Part shown: positions 4,659-33,791 of the stretch, in pieces
Position numbering within the stretch: position 1 is the first letter of the stretch
Layout of the letters: each line of letters begins with the position of its first letter
Source of the DNA: Escherichia coli
Lineage (GTDB): Bacteria; Pseudomonadota; Gammaproteobacteria; Enterobacterales; Enterobacteriaceae
DNA: 64,000 nt
Reading direction: 5' to 3' (one strand)
Assembly (NCBI RefSeq): GCF_044324785.1
Contig: NZ_CP172127.1
The notes under the pieces: generated by a model
What the model was told of the DNA's origin: nothing
Seen by the model: the letters and a program-made list of their open reading frames with translations, nothing else
Database searches by the model: none
Made by a program: the position numbers and the translations under genes

Positions 4659-6173
4659 ATGCAACAGTCTACCCCGTATCTCTCATTTCGCGGCATCGGT
4701 AAAACGTTTCCCGGCGTTAAGGCGCTGACGGATATTAGTTTTGACTGCTATGCCGGTCAGGTTCATGCGTTGATGGGTGAAAATGGCGCAGGAAAATCAA
4801 CTCTCTTAAAAATCCTCAGCGGCAACTATGCGCCAACCACGGGTTCTGTAGTGATTAATGGGCAGGAAATGTCCTTTTCCGACACAACCGCAGCACTTAA
4901 CGCGGGTGTGGCGATTATTTACCAGGAACTGCATCTCGTGCCGGAAATGACCGTCGCGGAAAACATCTATCTCGGCCAGCTGCCGCATAAAGGCGGCATT
5001 GTGAATCGCTCATTGCTGAATTATGAGGCGGGTTTACAACTTAAACATCTTGGTATGGATATTGACCCGGACACGCCGCTGAAATATCTCTCCATTGGTC
5101 AGTGGCAGATGGTTGAAATTGCCAAAGCGCTGGCGCGTAACGCCAAAATTATCGCTTTTGATGAGCCAACCAGCTCCCTCTCTGCCCGTGAAATCGACAA
5201 TCTTTTCCGCGTAATTCGTGAACTGCGAAAAGAGGGGCGGGTGATCTTATACGTTTCTCACCGTATGGAAGAAATATTTGCCCTAAGCGATGCCATCACC
5301 GTCTTTAAAGATGGGCGTTATGTCAAAACCTTTACCGATATGCAGCAGGTTGACCACGACGCCCTGGTGCAGGCGATGGTCGGGCGCGACATCGGCGATA
5401 TCTACGGCTGGCAACCGCGTAGTTATGGCGAGGAGCGCCTGCGTCTTGATGCTGTGAAAGCGCCAGGCGTGCGTACGCCAATAAGTCTGGCGGTTCGCAG
5501 TGGAGAAATTGTCGGTCTGTTTGGTCTGGTCGGGGCAGGGCGTAGCGAATTAATGAAAGGCATGTTTGGCGGTACGCAAATCACCGCCGGTCAGGTTTAT
5601 ATCGACCAACAGCCGATTGATATTCGTAAACCGAGCCACGCTATTGCCGCAGGCATGATGCTCTGCCCGGAAGATCGCAAAGCGGAAGGCATTATTCCTG
5701 TGCACTCCGTTCGCGACAATATCAACATCAGTGCCAGACGCAAACATGTGCTCGGCGGTTGTGTAATCAACAACGGTTGGGAAGAAAACAATGCCGATCA
5801 CCACATTCGTTCGCTCAACATCAAAACGCCGGGCGCAGAGCAACTGATCATGAATCTTTCAGGCGGAAATCAGCAAAAAGCCATTCTGGGCCGCTGGTTA
5901 TCGGAAGAGATGAAGGTCATTTTGCTGGATGAACCTACGCGCGGCATTGATGTTGGTGCTAAGCACGAAATATATAACGTAATTTATGCGCTGGCGGCGC
6001 AGGGTGTGGCGGTGCTGTTTGCCTCCAGCGACTTACCTGAAGTCCTCGGCGTTGCCGACCGGATTGTGGTGATGCGGGAAGGCGAAATCGCCGGTGAATT
6101 GTTACACGAGCAGGCAGATGAGCGTCAGGCACTGAGCCTTGCGATGCCTAAAGTCAGCCAGGCAGTTGCCTGA
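4659..6173 (+). CDS. araG: L-arabinose ABC transporter ATP-binding protein AraG (tandem ABC domains)
   Basis: ORF track 4614..6173; start trimmed to [10 protein letters not shown] (504 aa); two Walker A motifs ([18 protein letters not shown]). Confidence 0.93.
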
Positions 6174-6187
6174 GTAAGGAGAGTATG

Positions 6188-9540
<3,353 letters not shown>

Positions 9541-12701: not shown

Positions 12702-15593
<2,892 letters not shown>

Positions 15594-15613
15594 ATGAGTA
15601 AAAAGGTAACAAT

Positions 15614-16117
15614 ATGACCGGTATGACGAATGTAACAAAGCTGGCCAGCGAGCCGTCAGGCCAGGAATTTCTGGTATTTACCCTTGGTGATGAAGAGTAC
15701 GGTATTGATATCCTGAAAGTGCAGGAGATCCGTGGCTACGATCAGGTAACACGGATTGCGAACACGCCAGCGTTTATCAAAGGCGTCACGAATCTGCGCG
15801 GCGTTATTGTGCCGATTGTCGACTTACGAATTAAGTTCAGCCAGGTGGATGTGGACTATAACGACAACACGGTAGTTATCGTCCTGAATCTCGGACAGCG
15901 GGTGGTCGGCATCGTGGTTGACGGCGTTTCAGACGTGCTTTCATTGACGGCGGAGCAAATTCGTCCGGCACCGGAATTTGCCGTGACGCTTTCAACAGAA
16001 TATCTCACTGGACTGGGCGCACTGGGCGACCGGATGTTGATTCTGGTGAACATCGAAAAACTGCTGAACAGCGAAGAGATGGCGCTGTTAGATAGCGCGG
16101 CGTCAGAAGTGGCGTAA
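15614..16117 (+). CDS. cheW: Chemotaxis coupling protein CheW
   Basis: ORF track 167 aa. Confidence 0.95.
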
Positions 16118-16145
16118 TTCTCCTGATTTCCTCAATTGAAATGAA

Positions 16146-16172
16146 CCCGATGATCTGCACATCGGGTTTTTT
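16146..16172 (+). terminator. Rho-independent terminator after cheW
   Basis: Stem cccgatg / catcggg followed by TTTTTT. Confidence 0.75.
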
Positions 16173-16203
16173 ATTTCAATTTAGCGGTAGGTGGCATCAG
16201 CAA

Positions 16204-16230
16204 TAAAGTTTCCCCCCTCCTTGCCGATAA
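16204..16230 (+). promoter_or_regulatory. Sigma28 (FliA) promoter of the tar-tap-cheRBYZ operon: TAAAGTTT-N11-GCCGATAA
   Basis: Exact consensus match, about 30 bp upstream of the tar start. Confidence 0.8.
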
Positions 16231-16261
16231 CGAGATCAACTTGTTTTCAGGAAGGTGCCTT

Positions 16262-17923
16262 ATGATTAACCGTATCCGCGTAGTCACGCTGTTGGTAATG
16301 GTGCTGGGGGTATTCGCACTGTTACAGCTTATTTCCGGCAGTCTGTTTTTTTCTTCCCTTCACCATAGCCAGAAGAGCTTTGTGGTTTCCAATCAATTAC
16401 GGGAACAGCAGGGCGAGCTGACGTCAACCTGGGATTTAATGCTGCAAACGCGCATTAACCTGAGTCGTTCAGCGGTACGGATGATGATGGATTCCTCAAA
16501 TCAACAAAGTAACGCCAAAGTTGAATTACTCGATAGCGCCAGGAAAACATTGGCCCAGGCAGCGACTCATTATAAAAAATTCAAAAGCATGGCACCGTTA
16601 CCTGAAATGGTCGCTACCAGTCGTAATATTGATGAAAAATATAAAAACTATCACACAGCGTTAACTGAACTGATTGATTATCTTGATTATGGCAATACTG
16701 GAGCTTATTTCGCTCAGCCAACCCAGGGAATGCAAAATGCAATGGGCGAAGCGTTTGCTCAGTACGCCCTCAGCAGTGAAAAACTGTATCGCGATATCTT
16801 CACTGACAACGCAGATGATTACCGATTTGCCCAGTGGCAACTGGCGGTTATTGCGCTGGTGGTGGTATTGATTCTGCTGGTGGCGTGGTACGGCATTCGC
16901 CGTATGTTGCTTACACCGCTGGCAAAAATTATTGCTCACATTCGCGAAATCGCCGGTGGTAACCTGGCGAATACCCTGACCATTGACGGGCGCAGTGAAA
17001 TGGGCGACCTGGCGCAGAGCGTTTCACATATGCAACGCTCTTTGACTGACACCGTCACTCATGTGCGTGAAGGTTCAGATGCCATCTATGCCGGTACCCG
17101 TGAAATTGCGGCGGGCAACACCGATCTTTCCTCCCGTACTGAACAGCAGGCATCCGCGCTGGAAGAAACTGCCGCCAGCATGGAGCAGCTCACTGCGACA
17201 GTGAAGCAAAACGCCGATAACGCCCGCCAGGCCTCGCAACTGGCGCAAAGTGCCTCCGATACCGCCCAGCATGGCGGCAAAGTAGTGGATGGCGTAGTGA
17301 AAACGATGCATGAGATCGCCGATAGTTCGAAGAAAATTGCCGACATTATCAGCGTTATCGATGGTATTGCCTTCCAGACTAATATCCTCGCGTTGAATGC
17401 CGCTGTTGAAGCCGCGCGTGCGGGTGAACAGGGCCGTGGTTTTGCCGTGGTGGCGGGCGAAGTGCGTAATCTTGCCAGTCGCAGTGCCCAGGCGGCAAAA
17501 GAGATCAAAGCCCTCATTGAAGACTCCGTCTCGCGCGTTGATACCGGTTCGGTGCTGGTCGAAAGCGCCGGGGAAACAATGAACAATATCGTCAATGCTG
17601 TCACTCGCGTGACTGACATTATGGGCGAGATTGCATCGGCATCGGATGAACAGAGCCGTGGCATCGATCAAGTCGCATTGGCGGTTTCGGAAATGGATCG
17701 CGTCACGCAACAGAACGCATCGCTGGTGCAGGAATCAGCTGCCGCCGCAGCTGCGCTGGAAGAACAGGCCAGTCGTTTAACGCAAGCGGTTTCCGCGTTT
17801 CGTCTGGCAGCCAGCCCACTCACCAATAAACCGCAAACACCATCCCGTCCTGCCAGTGAGCAACCACCGGCACAGCCACGACTGCGAATTGCTGAACAAG
17901 ATCCAAACTGGGAAACATTTTGA
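16262..17923 (+). CDS. tar: Methyl-accepting chemotaxis protein II (aspartate/maltose receptor) Tar
   Basis: ORF track 16241..17923; start MINRIRVVT (553 aa). Confidence 0.93.
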
Positions 17924-17968
17924 CGAGTATTTACTAACGCGGTCATTGCCGCCTGATGGGGAGCGTTG

Positions 17969-19570
17969 ATGTTTAATCGTATTCGAATTTCGACCACGCT
18001 GTTTTTAATTTTGATTCTCTGCGGGATCTTGCAGATTGGCAGTAACGGCATGTCTTTTTGGGCATTTCGCGACGATTTGCAACGACTGAATCAGGTCGAG
18101 CAGAGCAATCAGCAACGTGCGGCATTAGCGCAAACTCGGGCGGTAATGTTACAGGCCAGTACCGCGCTGAACAAAGCGGGCACTCTGACGGCGCTTAGCT
18201 ATCCGGCGGATGACATTAAAACGTTGATGACGACGGCGCGCGCCAGTCTGACGCAATCCACCACGCTGTTTAAAAGTTTTATGGCGATGACTGCGGGCAA
18301 CGAGCACGTCAGGGCATTGCAAAAAGAGACGGAGAAAAGTTTTGCCCGCTGGCACAACGATCTCGAACATCAGGCGACCTGGCTTGAAAGTAATCAACTT
18401 TCGGATTTCCTTACTGCGCCGGTGCAGGGATCACAGAATGCGTTTGACGTTAACTTTGAGGCCTGGCAGCTGGAGATCAACCATGTGCTGGAAGCCGCCA
18501 GTGCGCAAAGCCAGCGTAACTATCAGATTTCGGCGCTGGTGTTTATCAGCATGATTATTGTTGCGGCGATCTACATCAGCAGTGCGCTGTGGTGGACGCG
18601 CAAGATGATTGTTCAACCACTGGCCATTATCGGTAGCCATTTTGACAGCATTGCTGCGGGTAATCTGGCGCGTCCGATTGCGGTATATGGTCGTAATGAG
18701 ATCACCGCCATTTTTGCCAGCCTGAAGACCATGCAGCAGGCTTTGCGTGGGACGGTGAGTGATGTGCGTAAGGGAAGCCAGGAGATGCACATTGGTATCG
18801 CGGAGATTGTCGCAGGCAATAACGATCTCTCAAGTCGTACCGAACAGCAGGCGGCATCGCTGGCACAAACGGCCGCCAGTATGGAGCAATTAACCGCCAC
18901 GGTAGGGCAAAACGCCGATAACGCACGACAGGCGTCGGAACTGGCAAAAAATGCCGCGACAACGGCGCAGGCGGGCGGTGTTCAGGTTAGTACCATGACT
19001 CACACCATGCAGGAGATCGCCACCAGCTCGCAAAAAATTGGCGACATTATCAGCGTTATCGACGGCATTGCTTTCCAGACCAATATTCTGGCCCTGAATG
19101 CGGCAGTGGAAGCGGCTCGCGCCGGAGAGCAGGGGCGTGGTTTTGCGGTAGTGGCAGGTGAAGTGCGCAATCTTGCCAGCCGTAGCGCCCAGGCAGCAAA
19201 AGAGATCAAAGGGCTGATCGAAGAGTCAGTCAATCGTGTCCAGCAGGGTTCGAAACTGGTGAATAACGCCGCCGCGACCATGACCGATATTGTCAGTTCG
19301 GTGACCCGCGTGAACGACATTATGGGAGAAATTGCTTCGGCGTCGGAAGAACAACGGCGGGGGATTGAGCAGGTTGCGCAGGCTGTCAGCCAGATGGATC
19401 AGGTGACACAGCAGAACGCCTCGCTGGTAGAAGAAGCGGCGGCGGCAACGGAACAACTGGCGAACCAGGCTGACCATCTTTCGTCGCGTGTGGCGGTATT
19501 TACCCTTGAAGAACATGAAGTAGCACGACATGAGTCGGCGCAGTTACATTTTGCGCCAGTGGTATCCTGA
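17969..19570 (+). CDS. tap: Methyl-accepting chemotaxis protein IV (dipeptide receptor) Tap
   Basis: ORF track 17966..19570; start MFNRIRIST (533 aa). Confidence 0.93.
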   Translation: MFNRIRISTTLFLILILCGILQIGSNGMSFWAFRDDLQRLNQVEQSNQQRAALAQTRAVMLQASTALNKAGTLTALSYPADDIKTLMTTARASLTQSTTLFKSFMAMTAGNEHVRALQKETEKSFARWHNDLEHQATWLESNQLSDFLTAPVQGSQNAFDVNFEAWQLEINHVLEAASAQSQRNYQISALVFISMIIVAAIYISSALWWTRKMIVQPLAIIGSHFDSIAAGNLARPIAVYGRNEITAIFASLKTMQQALRGTVSDVRKGSQEMHIGIAEIVAGNNDLSSRTEQQAASLAQTAASMEQLTATVGQNADNARQASELAKNAATTAQAGGVQVSTMTHTMQEIATSSQKIGDIISVIDGIAFQTNILALNAAVEAARAGEQGRGFAVVAGEVRNLASRSAQAAKEIKGLIEESVNRVQQGSKLVNNAAATMTDIVSSVTRVNDIMGEIASASEEQRRGIEQVAQAVSQMDQVTQQNASLVEEAAAATEQLANQADHLSSRVAVFTLEEHEVARHESAQLHFAPVVS

Positions 19571-19588
19571 AGTGATTGAGAAGGCGCT

Positions 19589-20449
19589 ATGACTTCATCT
19601 CTGCCCTGTGGGCAAACGTCTTTATTGTTACAGATGACCGAGCGCCTGGCGCTTTCCGACGCGCATTTTCGGCGGATAAGTCAATTGATCTATCAACGAG
19701 CCGGGATCGTCCTGGCCGACCATAAACGCGACATGGTTTACAACCGACTGGTTCGTCGTTTGCGTTCGCTGGGACTGACGGATTTCGGCCATTACTTGAA
19801 CTTGCTGGAATCTAATCAGCACAGCGGTGAGTGGCAGGCGTTTATCAATTCGCTGACCACGAATCTGACGGCTTTTTTCCGTGAGGCGCATCATTTTCCT
19901 CTGCTCGCGGATCACGCCCGGCGTCGTTCTGGCGAGTATCGCGTATGGAGCGCGGCGGCTTCGACCGGCGAAGAGCCGTACAGCATTGCGATGACGCTGG
20001 CTGACACATTGGGCACCGCGCCCGGACGCTGGAAAGTGTTTGCCAGCGACATTGACACCGAAGTGCTGGAAAAAGCCAGAAGCGGTATTTATCGCCATGA
20101 AGAGCTGAAAAATCTGACGCCGCAGCAACTGCAGCGGTACTTCATGCGAGGGACGGGACCGCATCAAGGGCTGGTACGCGTGCGTCAGGAATTGGCGAAT
20201 TATGTTGATTTTGCCCCGCTGAATTTACTGGCGAAACAGTACACCGTGCCGGGGCCGTTTGATGCGATCTTCTGTCGTAACGTCATGATCTACTTCGATC
20301 AAACTACCCAGCAGGAGATTTTGCGCCGCTTTGTTCCGCTCCTTAAACCCGACGGATTGCTGTTTGCGGGTCACTCTGAAAACTTTAGCCACCTTGAGCG
20401 CCGCTTCACGCTGCGTGGTCAGACGGTGTATGCGCTAAGTAAGGATTAA
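19589..20449 (+). CDS. cheR: Chemotaxis protein methyltransferase CheR
   Basis: ORF track 286 aa. Confidence 0.95.
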
Positions 20450-20451
20450 CG

Positions 20452-21905
<1,454 letters not shown>

Positions 21906-21915
21906 GGATGCGACT

Positions 21916-22560
21916 ATGATGCAACCATCAATCAAACCTGCTGACGAGCATTCAGCTGGCGATATCATTGCGCGCATCGGCAGCCTGACGCGTATGCTGC
22001 GCGACAGTTTGCGGGAGCTGGGGCTGGATCAGGCCATTGCCGAAGCGGCGGAAGCCATCCCCGATGCGCGCGATCGTTTGTACTATGTTGTGCAGATGAC
22101 CGCCCAGGCTGCGGAGCGGGCGCTGAACAGTGTTGAGGCGTCACAACCGCATCAGGATCAAATGGAGAAATCAGCAAAAGCGTTAACCCAACGTTGGGAT
22201 GACTGGTTTGCCGATCCGATTGACCTTGCCGACGCCCGTGAACTGGTAACAGATACGCGGCAATTTCTGGCAGATGTACCCGCACATACCAGCTTTACTA
22301 ACGCGCAACTGCTGGAAATCATGATGGCGCAGGATTTTCAGGATCTCACCGGGCAGGTTATTAAGCGGATGATGGATGTCATTCAGGAGATCGAACGTCA
22401 GTTGCTGATGGTGCTGTTGGAAAACATCCCGGAACAGGAGTCGCGTCCAAAACGTGAAAACCAGAGTTTGCTTAATGGACCTCAGGTCGATACCAGCAAA
22501 GCCGGTGTGGTAGCCAGTCAGGATCAGGTGGACGATTTGTTGGATAGTCTTGGATTTTGA
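21916..22560 (+). CDS. cheZ: CheY-P phosphatase CheZ
   Basis: ORF track 21886..22560 (TTG-initiated frame); ATG at 21916 gives [10 protein letters not shown] (214 aa). Confidence 0.93.
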
Positions 22561-22568
22561 TTTGTATT

Positions 22569-22633
22569 GCCTGATGTGGCGTGACTACGTCATATCAGGC
22601 GGTCGGATAACGCGATGACGCCGCATCCGACAA
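22569..22633. repeat. REP/BIME element (two REP-like palindromic units) between cheZ and flhB
   Basis: gcctgatgtggcgtgactacgtcatatcaggc followed by ggtcggataacgcgatgacgccgcatccgacaa, resembling the enterobacterial REP consensus. Confidence 0.6.
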
Positions 22634-22761
22634 ACGCACATTATGCTTGATGTGTGGCAGCAAAAGCCCTAAATCCCGCCTGTTTTGCCTCTTACTCAAA
22701 CCATTGAACGCTTTGCGCTCTGGCATCATTTACGCTTAATACTCTTTCCAGGATTGGCGAC

Positions 22762-23910
22762 GTGTCTGACGAGAGCGACGACAAAACAGAAGCCCCCACA
22801 CCTCACCGACTAGAAAAAGCGCGGGAAGAGGGGCAAATCCCGCGTTCTCGTGAACTGACTTCACTGCTGATTTTGGTGGTGGGCGTTAGTGTTATCTGGT
22901 TTGGCGGTGTGTCGCTGGCCCGTCGATTGTCGGGCATGCTCTCCGCTGGGCTGCATTTTGATCACAGTATTATCAATGACCCAAATCTGATCCTCGGGCA
23001 GATTATTCTGCTGATCAGAGAAGCCATGCTGGCGCTGCTGCCACTGATTAGCGGCGTGGTGCTGGTGGCGCTCATTTCTCCGGTCATGCTGGGAGGGCTG
23101 GTATTTAGCGGCAAATCCTTGCAGCCGAAGTTTTCCAAACTCAACCCGCTACCGGGCATTAAACGGATGTTCTCGGCACAGACTGGCGCGGAGTTGCTTA
23201 AGGCAATTTTGAAAACCATCCTGGTTGGCAGCGTGACGGGATTTTTTCTCTGGCATCACTGGCCGCAGATGATGCGCTTAATGGCCGAGTCTCCGATTAC
23301 CGCCATGGGTAATGCGATGGATCTGGTAGGGCTATGCGCGCTGCTGGTGGTACTTGGTGTTATTCCGATGGTGGGATTTGACGTCTTTTTCCAAATCTTC
23401 AGCCACCTGAAAAAGCTGCGAATGTCGCGGCAGGATATTCGTGATGAGTTCAAACAAAGCGAAGGCGATCCTCATGTTAAAGGGCGGATCCGTCAGATGC
23501 AGCGAGCTGCCGCGCGGCGTCGGATGATGGCCGATGTGCCGAAAGCGGATGTCATTGTCAATAACCCGACCCACTATTCGGTAGCGTTGCAGTATGACGA
23601 AAACAAAATGAGCGCACCGAAAGTGGTCGCTAAAGGTGCAGGGCTGGTCGCGCTGCGCATTCGTGAAATTGGCGCTGAAAATAACGTCCCTACGCTTGAA
23701 GCGCCGCCGCTGGCGCGAGCGCTGTATCGACATGCGGAGATCGGTCAACAAATCCCGGGTCAACTGTACGCCGCGGTGGCGGAAGTGCTGGCCTGGGTCT
23801 GGCAACTGAAACGCTGGCGTCTGGCTGGTGGACAGCGCCCTGTACAACCTACTCATCTTCCGGTGCCGGAAGCCCTGGATTTTATTAACGAGAAACCGAC
23901 CCATGAGTAA
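22762..23910 (+). CDS. flhB: Flagellar export apparatus protein FlhB
   Basis: ORF track 382 aa (GTG start), conserved NPTH autocleavage motif present. Confidence 0.95.
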   Translation: MSDESDDKTEAPTPHRLEKAREEGQIPRSRELTSLLILVVGVSVIWFGGVSLARRLSGMLSAGLHFDHSIINDPNLILGQIILLIREAMLALLPLISGVVLVALISPVMLGGLVFSGKSLQPKFSKLNPLPGIKRMFSAQTGAELLKAILKTILVGSVTGFFLWHHWPQMMRLMAESPITAMGNAMDLVGLCALLVVLGVIPMVGFDVFFQIFSHLKKLRMSRQDIRDEFKQSEGDPHVKGRIRQMQRAAARRRMMADVPKADVIVNNPTHYSVALQYDENKMSAPKVVAKGAGLVALRIREIGAENNVPTLEAPPLARALYRHAEIGQQIPGQLYAAVAEVLAWVWQLKRWRLAGGQRPVQPTHLPVPEALDFINEKPTHE

Positions 23911-28945: not shown

Positions 28946-29701
<756 letters not shown>

Positions 29702-29747
29702 TTTTTACCGTTGCATCATGTCGCCCAATATGATGCTTGCTCGTACC

Positions 29748-29781
29748 AGGCCCCTGCAATTTCAACAGGGGCCTTTTTTTA
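29748..29781 (+). terminator. Rho-independent terminator after cutC
   Basis: Stem aggcccctg / caggggcct followed by TTTTTTT. Confidence 0.8.
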
Positions 29782-33692: not shown

Positions 33693-33791
33693 GCCTGATG
33701 CGCTATGCTTATAAGGCCTACATAGTCCCTGCAATATATTGAATTAGCAAGATTTTGTAGGCCGGATAAGGCGTTCACGCCGCATCCGGCA
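33693..33791. repeat. REP/BIME element between convergent torZ and cmoB
   Basis: gtaggccggataaggcgttcacgccgcatccggca is a near-consensus REP; a second degenerate unit lies upstream. Confidence 0.7.

Follow-up and report, generated by a model that had tools for sequence, protein, structure and literature searches.

A homeologous direct repeat in the tar and tap chemoreceptor genes of Escherichia coli and its rare natural deletion products

The window analysed here, a stretch of 64,000 nt from an Escherichia coli genome (contig NZ_CP172127.1, assembly GCF_044324785.1), carries the chemoreceptor genes tar and tap in tandem. What the two genes share is very probably conserved signalling-domain coding sequence in adjacent paralogs that go back to an old duplication, forming a weak homeologous repeat at which 1701-bp deletions occur rarely. 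With about 75% identity, the two copies are homeologous rather than near-identical. Fusion of tar and tap by recombination is real but rare, and the usual loss of tap is unrelated to the repeat. The repeat is already known and ordinary biology, little follows for the window itself, which holds a textbook tar-tap pair, and the natural hybrids raise no new question.

Gene content and organization

The open reading frames (ORFs) of this region appear in the order cheA, cheW, tar, tap, cheR, cheB, cheY, cheZ, and flhB, with the tar-tap pair located between cheW and cheR and tar in first place, in concordance with the RefSeq annotation of strain 7/2 and of K-12. This gene context is like that of the canonical E. 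coli operon cheA-cheW-tar-tap-cheR-cheB-cheY-cheZ. The gene names tar and tap given by the first-pass annotation were borne out by Pfam domains and by the annotation of both genes in strain 7/2, which displayed 99.3% identity to the window over tar-tap. Both proteins revealed the domain order TarH, HAMP, MCPsignal and thus belong to the methyl-accepting chemotaxis proteins (MCPs), sharing this order with the E. coli paralogs Tar, Tap, Tsr, and Trg. The respective matches were TarH (PF02203, E = 2e-41), HAMP (PF00672, E = 2e-11), and MCPsignal (PF00015, E = 5e-63) for Tar, and E = 2e-42, 2e-9, and 2e-56 for the same three families in Tap.

According to the translations, Tar ends with ...EQDPNWETF and Tap with ...HFAPVVS. 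The NWETF motif is the CheR/CheB tether of high-abundance receptors and is lacking in Tap (PMC4692393; bioRxiv 10.1101/211474), so that Tar of the window falls into the high-abundance and Tap into the low-abundance class. The cytoplasmic domains of E. coli receptors are highly conserved (PMC2229510), and, as in the other MCP paralogs, the hairpin-tip sequence is nearly invariant in the window genes too. Altogether, tar and tap of the window are ordinary alleles with 98.6% identity to K-12-like strains over tar-tap and no difference from the known MCP system; the pair is in its normal state, with no fusion or rearrangement in the window itself. All features are listed in Table 1.

Table 1. Features of the tar-tap region, with positions in the window
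Feature	Position	Strand	Evidence	Remarks
tar, aspartate/maltose chemoreceptor gene	16262..17923	+	ORF, translation, Pfam	553 aa, C-terminus NWETF
tap, dipeptide chemoreceptor gene	17969..19570	+	ORF, translation, Pfam	533 aa, without NWETF
Repeat copy 1, tar signalling-domain core	17093..17726	+	gapless alignment	methylation helices and hairpin tip
Repeat copy 2, tap signalling-domain core	18794..19427	+	gapless alignment	1701 nt downstream of copy 1
Longest perfect block, CGACATTATCAGCGTTATCGA	17341..17361	+		21 nt; = tap 19042-19062; crossover site of the ET474/PEC389 hybrid
Second-longest perfect block, GCAAAACGCCGATAACGC	17206..17223	+		18 nt; = tap 18907-18924; crossover site of the ETEC4088 hybrid
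Third-longest perfect block, GCAAAAGAGATCAAAG	17495..17510	+		16 nt; = tap 19196-19211; example given by the first-pass annotation
tap segment absent from 1,059 genomes (e.g., Nissle 1917)	18096..19469	+	junction reading	
Spurious antisense ORF in tar	17075..17710	-	no Pfam match	211 aa; exactly opposite the sense codons
Second spurious antisense ORF in tar	17086-17664	-	no Pfam match	192 aa; other open antisense phase
Spurious antisense ORF in tap	19000-19320	-	no Pfam match	106 aa
Second spurious antisense ORF in tap	19226-19531	-	no Pfam match	101 aa

Extent and identity of the direct repeat

Alignment of the two signalling-domain cores revealed 72.7% nucleotide identity over 634 nt without gaps, each tap position lying 1701 nt after its tar counterpart. 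A repeat search paired 17303-17602 with 19004-19303 (76%) and 17093-17277 with 18794-18978 (73%), while blastn of tar against tap resulted in a match of 647 nt with 72.95% identity (E = 4.5e-107). A direct repeat with its copies about 1.7 kb apart had been proposed from the sequence and, indeed, the self dot-plot suggested as a check displayed a single diagonal, with 36 shared 10-mers at offset 1701 and 3 at the next-best offset, which is far beyond chance and shows the copies to be in register. The word quoted as an example, GCAAAAGAGATCAAAG, occurs at 17495 and at 19196 and nowhere else in the window.

The copies had also been described as near-identical with only scattered synonymous differences, which did not hold. 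Within the interval 17330-17720 named for tar, identity to tap was 74.9% (98 mismatches in 391 nt), the longest identical run comprised 21 nt, and the codon differences of the 634-nt core were 81 synonymous and 47 non-synonymous ones. If near-identical repeats are taken to have more than about 95% nucleotide identity over hundreds of bases together with low synonymous divergence, the values found here are clearly different: identity was 72.7–76% and peaked at 82% over 180 nt at the hairpin tip (17339-17518), identity at third positions was only 0.48, and core divergence amounted to dN = 0.17 and dS = 1.53, with synonymous sites near saturation. The longest run, CGACATTATCAGCGTTATCGA, extends to 24 nt in K-12-like backgrounds; at its 21 nt in the window it is no longer than expected from column shuffles (P = 0.17). 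At the protein level, the cores shared 78% of their amino acids, and nearly 100% at the hairpin tip; the ligand-binding halves of Tar and Tap shared only 10–40%. The similarity to be explained is thus one of about 75%, and it reflects protein constraint, not the tandem layout.

Origin of the similarity

The side-by-side position of tar and tap, their common orientation, and their alignment in register would also be expected of recent tandem duplicates or of copies homogenised by gene conversion, whose repeats would be near-identical and highly recombination-prone. In addition, 83 identical residues were encoded by identical codons, slightly more than the 65 that independent draws based on the codon usage of the two genes would give (P ~0.001), so that a remnant of common ancestry or a codon preference at particular sites persists. 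Nevertheless, we consider such a recent origin or homogenisation very improbable in view of the 98 mismatches in 391 nt, the dS of 1.53, the strongly diverged ligand-binding halves, and the lack of significance of the longest run. Moreover, tar is closer to the unlinked gene tsr (76.8% identity, 28-nt run) than to tap, which shows the similarity to be independent of the tandem arrangement; among other unlinked pairs, tap and aer shared a 29-nt run and tar and trg were 70% identical. Taken together with synonymous sites near saturation, the closeness of tar to tsr argues for protein-level constraint on an old duplication.

Concerted evolution would show itself in linked copies that are more alike than unlinked paralogs and in strain-specific variants shared within a genome. 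Besides the higher identity of tar and tsr, no tap-like patches were found among the polymorphisms of 7 tar alleles, where the minor allele equalled the tap base at 1 of 19 polymorphic sites and without clustering in this small allele sample, and a gene-conversion screen of 7 tar and 4 tap alleles detected no conversion tracts. Descent from an old duplication thus remains the preferred reading. Purifying selection on the signalling domain, the tip of which contacts CheA and CheW, together with shared codon preferences, very probably keeps the nucleotide identity at about 73–82%, with neither a recent duplication nor gene conversion involved.

Natural tar-tap hybrids

The first-pass annotation had further suggested that the repeats could create tar-tap hybrids and had proposed a PCR screen for fusions. 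An answer at population scale was obtained using a synthetic fusion query: precise fusions exist in nature, in 3 of 5,426 complete E. coli genomes (ET474, PEC389, and ETEC4088; about 0.06%), and go back to two events. Each of the three harbors a single in-frame gene of 1608 bp between cheW and cheR, with exactly 1701 bp absent. In ET474 and PEC389, the informative sites change cleanly from tar-type to tap-type within the 21-nt block 17341-17361, while in ETEC4088 the same clean change lies within the 18-nt block 17206-17223. These products are precise in-register deletions with junctions inside shared sequence, as expected of a recombination substrate, and the two blocks concerned were the longest ones in every background examined; for a preference of junctions for the longest identical blocks, this amounts to only two independent events. 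Since the two hybrid types were found on different flanking haplotypes, they represent separate events. The hybrid proteins, recorded under WP_096259879.1 and WP_098723133.1, end with ...APVVS like Tap and carry no NWETF. In all three genomes the gene is annotated simply as 'tar', and clustering at 90% identity buries the hybrids within Tar clusters, as in the case of P0002.

Coverage was unusable for detecting fusions, as megablast carried tar alignments on into the homeologous stretch and 5,380 genomes reached at least 80% coverage. Therefore, fusions were picked by identity and rank, and, by identity arithmetic, junctions before about position 17685 would outrank intact genomes. For later junctions, a query running from tar (up to 17726) into the 3' end of tap and the first part of cheR resulted in no fusion, the top matches being genomes with a deletion inside tap. 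A synthetic query for the reciprocal duplication product (tap 5' part joined to tar 3' part) likewise revealed no hybrid among the 5,426 genomes. Apparent reciprocal matches (H106-H112) were rejected, as they consisted of pieces joined from normal neighbours carrying other lesions, namely deletions of 81 bp in tap, one of 222 bp in tar, and an inserted IS element.

Collapse of repeat copies is a recognised failure of assemblers, and the hybrids being annotated just as 'tar' would fit with an assembly artefact as well. However, this explanation is hardly credible. The exact 535-aa hybrid proteins recurred in NCBI, ENA, and Logan assemblies, one on 71 contigs (140 index blocks) and the other on 28 (58 index blocks), the neighbourhood cheW-hybrid-cheR was the same in every assembly read, and carriers of the ET474-type revealed slight differences in their flanks. 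Furthermore, copies of 75% identity with at most 21 identical nucleotides in a row are not known to be collapsed by assemblers, which also speaks against an artefact.

Tar-Tap hybrid receptors have been a subject of laboratory work (Slocum, Halden & Parkinson 1987; Weerasuriya, Schneider & Manson 1998; both as cited in PMC2229510). The natural 535-aa hybrids share their architecture, i.e., the N-terminal sensing part of Tar and the C-terminal signalling part of Tap. Unlike the laboratory hybrids, the natural ones come from isolates of wild or livestock origin (frog, pig, and ETEC), and dozens of assemblies now carry them. The hybrids of the 1987 work by Slocum and colleagues reportedly came from spontaneous deletions through the tar-tap homology. 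Literature phrase searches, in which the older key papers were represented by the papers citing them, returned no description of natural tar-tap fusions.

In E. coli, deletion between direct repeats that are short or homeologous is known to follow either RecA-dependent exchange, which requires a minimal identical segment, or RecA-independent replication slippage. In the tar-tap repeat, natural junctions coincide with the longest perfect blocks (21–24 and 18 nt), the remainder being 75% identical; either pathway predicts such junctions, and sequence alone cannot discriminate between them. As about 23–27 nt is usually quoted as the identity for efficient RecA-dependent exchange and the longest block of the window falls short of this figure, the mechanism is uncertain, and the enzymology suggested here is a putative one. 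Very rarely, a crossover or slippage in a short perfect block deletes exactly 1701 bp, and the product joins the Tar sensing domain, HAMP, and the N-terminal arm in frame to the C-terminal portion of Tap. This hybrid has neither the NWETF motif that tethers CheR and CheB nor the Tap sensing domain; its phenotype is an inference.

It is conceivable, if rather doubtful, that the two natural hybrids are not just neutral remnants but selectively maintained functional receptors that combine aspartate/maltose sensing with a Tap-type end lacking NWETF at the cost of dipeptide sensing. If so, the chemoreceptor set of E. coli lineages associated with livestock would have been rewired naturally in one step, with junctions dictated by the 18–24-nt identity blocks of the signalling domain. 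The natural hybrids may also provide ready material for work on receptor modularity and adaptation assistance.

Common loss of tap

The most frequent lesion of tap was a deletion inside the gene, identified in 1,059 of the 5,426 genomes, including Nissle 1917 and an O25b:H4-ST131 strain. It comprises 1374 bp with a CAGG microhomology at 18092-18095 and 19466-19469, and the allele also bears a 1-nt deletion, while tar is intact with its NWETF motif. A placement of the deletion at 18079-19452 by MAFFT was rejected, as direct reading of the junction gives 18096-19469. Loss of Tap in phylogroup B2 and uropathogenic E. coli has been described (Lane et al. 2006; Borziak et al. 2013; as reported in PMC3559539 and PMC12623472), and, following these citing papers, the 1,059 genomes correspond to phylogroup B2, with the same locus affected and the same outcome, i.e., no functional Tap. 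The route in the genomes with a tap remnant is a deletion inside tap at 4 nt (CAGG) and not an exchange between tar and tap.

Thus, the earlier suggestion that recombination between the repeats could delete tap was supported by the two fusion events only, while the usual loss takes another route. One could go further and regard the repeats as too diverged to matter, i.e., as plain paralogy with tap always lost by other routes. The full tar-tap arrangement kept in 4,321 of the 5,426 genomes, the frequency of the internal microhomology deletion with tar intact, the remaining lesions, which were IS insertions or small intragenic deletions, and the missing reciprocal tap-tar product are all in line with this. 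Still, two independent, precise, in-frame fusions lacking 1701 bp, with junctions in the two longest blocks and present in many assemblies, make this reading very unlikely; taken strictly, it is contradicted, and it is right only as a statement on frequency.

Antisense open reading frames

The antisense ORFs opposite tar and tap are spurious. The idea that four ORFs of 101–211 aa in two shared antisense phases represent genuine overlapping genes preserved through the repeat has next to no plausibility: a Pfam search matched none of the four, the positions of antisense stops in the open phases differ between tar and tap, and, outside the chemoreceptor paralogs, comparable antisense ORFs of 100–180 aa are present opposite cheA, cheR, cheB, and cheZ as well. 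The repeats had been thought to explain the parallel ORFs, which is right insofar as those of tar and tap occupy the same two phases, and falls short insofar as similar ORFs exist opposite non-paralogs. What keeps the in-register antisense phase open is the scarcity of TTA, CTA, and TCA among the sense codons (tar, 13 of 553; tap, 8 of 533).

Genomic context of tar and tap

In the window, the genes cheA, cheW, tar, tap, cheR, cheB, cheY, cheZ, and flhB follow one another in this order on the plus strand (13575-23910). Pfam revealed TarH, HAMP, and MCPsignal domains in both Tar and Tap, and the tar-tap segment was 99.3% identical to that of E. coli strain 7/2 and about 98.6% identical to those of K-12-like strains, with the counterparts in all of these annotated as tar and tap. 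In the flanks (cheA-cheW and cheR-cheB, within 13662-21870), divergence from each of the compared complete E. coli genomes was about 1.3-2.2%, so that the lineage of the window is not closely represented among them; strain 7/2 was nearest (33 differences over 2,600 nt and 36 over 2,300 nt). In the cheW-tar intergenic region, a match to the candidate sRNA C0465 (Rfam, 97.7 bits; 16137-16214, minus strand) overlapped a terminator-like hairpin immediately upstream of tar (16143-16169), which scored on both strands. Further Rfam matches were MicL (368 bits; 29473-29780, plus strand), located inside cutC as judged by the offset from a locus of another genome (L019), and ES036/CssrF (47.7 bits; 33714-33755, minus strand).

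Coordinates of tar, tap, their antisense ORFs, and the longest blocks (tar coordinates) identical between both genes
Feature	Position	Strand	Remark
tar	16262-17923	+	translation is E. coli Tar, 553 aa, C-terminus NWETF
tap	17969-19570	+	translation is E. coli Tap, 533 aa, C-terminus APVVS
antisense ORF in tar	17075-17710	-	
antisense ORF in tar	17086-17664	-	
antisense ORF in tap	19000-19320	-	
antisense ORF in tap	19226-19531	-	
longest identical block	17341-17361		21 nt
second identical block	17206-17223		18 nt
third identical block	17495-17510		16 nt; example word of the first-pass annotation

Similarity of the two signalling domains

A repeat search of the window revealed two direct repeat pairs, 17303-17602/19004-19303 (76% identity) and 17093-17277/18794-18978 (73%), both with a start-to-start spacing of 1701 nt, which blastn of tar against tap merged into one 647-nt alignment (72.95% identity, E = 4.5e-107). 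A dot-plot displayed a single diagonal, with 36 shared 10-mers at offset 1701 and three at the next best offset. The repeat is real and far above chance. The first-pass annotation had described it as near-identical with only synonymous differences, which was confirmed in part: the repeat exists, yet its identity is only about 75% (74.9% with 98 mismatches in 391 nt at 17330-17720; 72.7% over the 634-nt core, 17093-17726; 82% in the best 180 nt, 17339-17518). The example word occurs exactly twice in the window. Differences were synonymous in the segment for the hairpin tip, where the proteins are 97-100% identical and about half of all third positions differ, but over the core 47 of the differing codons were non-synonymous and 81 synonymous.

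Regarding the origin of this likeness, Nei-Gojobori estimates for the core were dN = 0.17 and dS = 1.53, the latter near saturation, which speaks against a recent duplication; for the N-terminal halves, dS was not computable. Gene conversion is likewise disfavored, since no tap-type base patches were found in tar among seven tar and four tap alleles. Nor does the tandem arrangement account for the likeness, as unlinked K-12 paralogs are equally close or closer: in the same columns, tar was 76.8% identical to tsr and 70.0% to trg, and third-position identity was 0.46-0.49 for tar against each of tap, tsr, and trg. The 21-nt run lay within the range of column-shuffled alignments (P = 0.17), and the same codon was used at the same residue in 83 of 164 cases, a modest excess over the 65 expected from the codon usage of both genes. 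We conclude that the likeness reflects strong constraint on the protein sequence of the MCP signalling domain after an old duplication. Unlinked K-12 pairs exceeded tar-tap in perfect runs (28 nt for tar-tsr, 29 nt for tap-aer); judged solely by identity, distant chemoreceptor genes would be no less plausible partners for ectopic exchange than tar and tap.

The antisense ORFs of both genes, which had been attributed to the repeats, do fall in two phases of the antisense strand that are the same for tar and tap, but shared sequence is only part of the explanation. Their stop positions are not the same, and antisense ORFs of 101-179 aa likewise lie opposite cheA, cheR, cheB, and cheZ. The rarity of the sense codons TTA, CTA, and TCA keeps the in-register antisense phase open, and a Pfam search of the four tar/tap antisense ORFs matched none. 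These ORFs result incidentally from composition and codon usage, with a partial contribution of shared sequence.

Natural tar-tap fusions

A synthetic fusion query (tar 16600-17361 joined to tap 19063-19440) was compared with 5,426 complete E. coli genomes. Because megablast extended through the homeologous part, identity reached about 91.3% even in intact genomes; three outliers were detected, namely ET474 and PEC389 (98.3%) and ETEC4088 (95.0%). All three harbor one 1608-bp gene (3309 minus 1701) between cheW and cheR, annotated as 'tar', and site-by-site typing against tar and tap of the window revealed that tar-type sites give way cleanly to tap-type sites, with the switch located inside the longest identical block in ET474 and PEC389 and inside the second-longest in ETEC4088. 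Since the flanks of ET474 and PEC389 are identical, they represent one event, and ETEC4088, on a different haplotype (21 and 13 flank differences), a second. The same two blocks ranked top in every tar/tap combination examined (24, 21, or 18 nt; 18 nt). If crossovers were spread evenly over the 634-nt core, both events would hit these blocks with a probability of about (41/635)^2, roughly 0.4% (hand calculation), which is suggestive of a crossover preference for the two longest identical blocks, based on two events.

NCBI, ENA, and Logan assemblies contain the exact hybrid proteins on 71 and 28 contigs, always in the neighborhood cheW-hybrid-cheR; this recurrence and constancy argue against assembly error. 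A late-junction query detected zero additional fusions among the 5,426 complete genomes, and a reciprocal tap-tar query revealed no duplication hybrid, its top matches being other lesions. In assembly GCA_907172595.1 (L017 4627-5486), which carries an ET474-type hybrid, cheR is in two ORFs, by frameshift or sequencing error.

The fusions are precise in-frame 1701-bp deletions with junctions in short perfect-identity blocks of a repeat of about 75% identity. They could have arisen by RecA-dependent exchange at a minimal identical segment or by RecA-independent slippage or misalignment between identical blocks. For efficient RecA exchange, 23-27 nt are usually quoted as needed; the 21-nt block of the window would fall slightly under this figure, and neither route is favored. 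In the hybrids, the Tar part extends from residue 1 to about residue 320 or 367 and the remainder is Tap, so that the NWETF pentapeptide is lost. In the high-abundance receptors Tar and Tsr, this pentapeptide is the CheR/CheB tether; it is missing from Tap (PMC4692393; bioRxiv 10.1101/211474). By inference, dipeptide sensing would be lost in carriers, and adaptation of their aspartate/maltose receptor would probably depend on Tsr.

It is already established that tar and tap are paralogs, that the MCP signalling domain is conserved, that Tar-Tap hybrids have been obtained in the laboratory, and that B2 strains lack Tap; functional laboratory chimeras are reported (Slocum 1987; Weerasuriya 1998, as cited in PMC2229510). 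No description of natural tar-tap fusions was found in the searchable literature; they represent a small extension of known behavior.

Loss of tap by internal deletion

The screen for fusion deletions proposed in the first-pass annotation was run in silico over the 5,426 complete genomes. Full coverage of the whole tar-tap query was obtained in 4,321, while about 1,100 showed just 59%. In Nissle 1917, the lower coverage reflects a tap remnant downstream of an intact tar; the junction in this remnant (AATCAGG|CCGACC) joins 18095 to 19470 across CAGG microhomology. The 1374 bp deleted (18096-19469) are internal to tap (compare locus L001 3208-3434), and the same remnant has a further 1-nt deletion at 18055. 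A 160-nt probe spanning the junction was covered in 1,059 of the 5,426 genomes, among them an ST131 strain and Nissle 1917; in these genomes tar is intact. B2 and uropathogenic strains are known to lack Tap (Lane 2006 and Borziak 2013, as summarised in PMC3559539 and PMC12623472); the 1374-bp deletion is this known absence, and tar is not involved. E. coli mostly loses tap by this internal deletion, which is distinct from tar-tap recombination. The proposal that the repeats serve as recombination substrates is therefore partly supported: hybrids exist, but the events are rare and tap is mostly lost by another deletion.

Other lesions in tar and tap

An in-frame loss of 81 bp from tap was seen in five complete genomes (L006 and L007, tap at 5377-6897). 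In FDAARGOS_1250, the missing segment corresponds to 18872-18952, flanked by GCCGC, and in LD39-1 to 18848-18928, flanked by CAGGCG; these may be two separate events in the N-terminal methylation helix. In tar of strain PI24 (L008 3670-5109), 222 bp are missing in frame (equivalent to 17433-17654), which removes the hairpin tip; this deletion is bordered by imperfect direct repeats of 15 nt, TGAACAGGGCCGTGG and TGAACAGAGCCGTGG, encoding EQGRG and EQSRG, one per hairpin arm. In strain WWCOL-256 (L009 6169-7377), tap is split by an insertion of the IS4-like ISVsa5.
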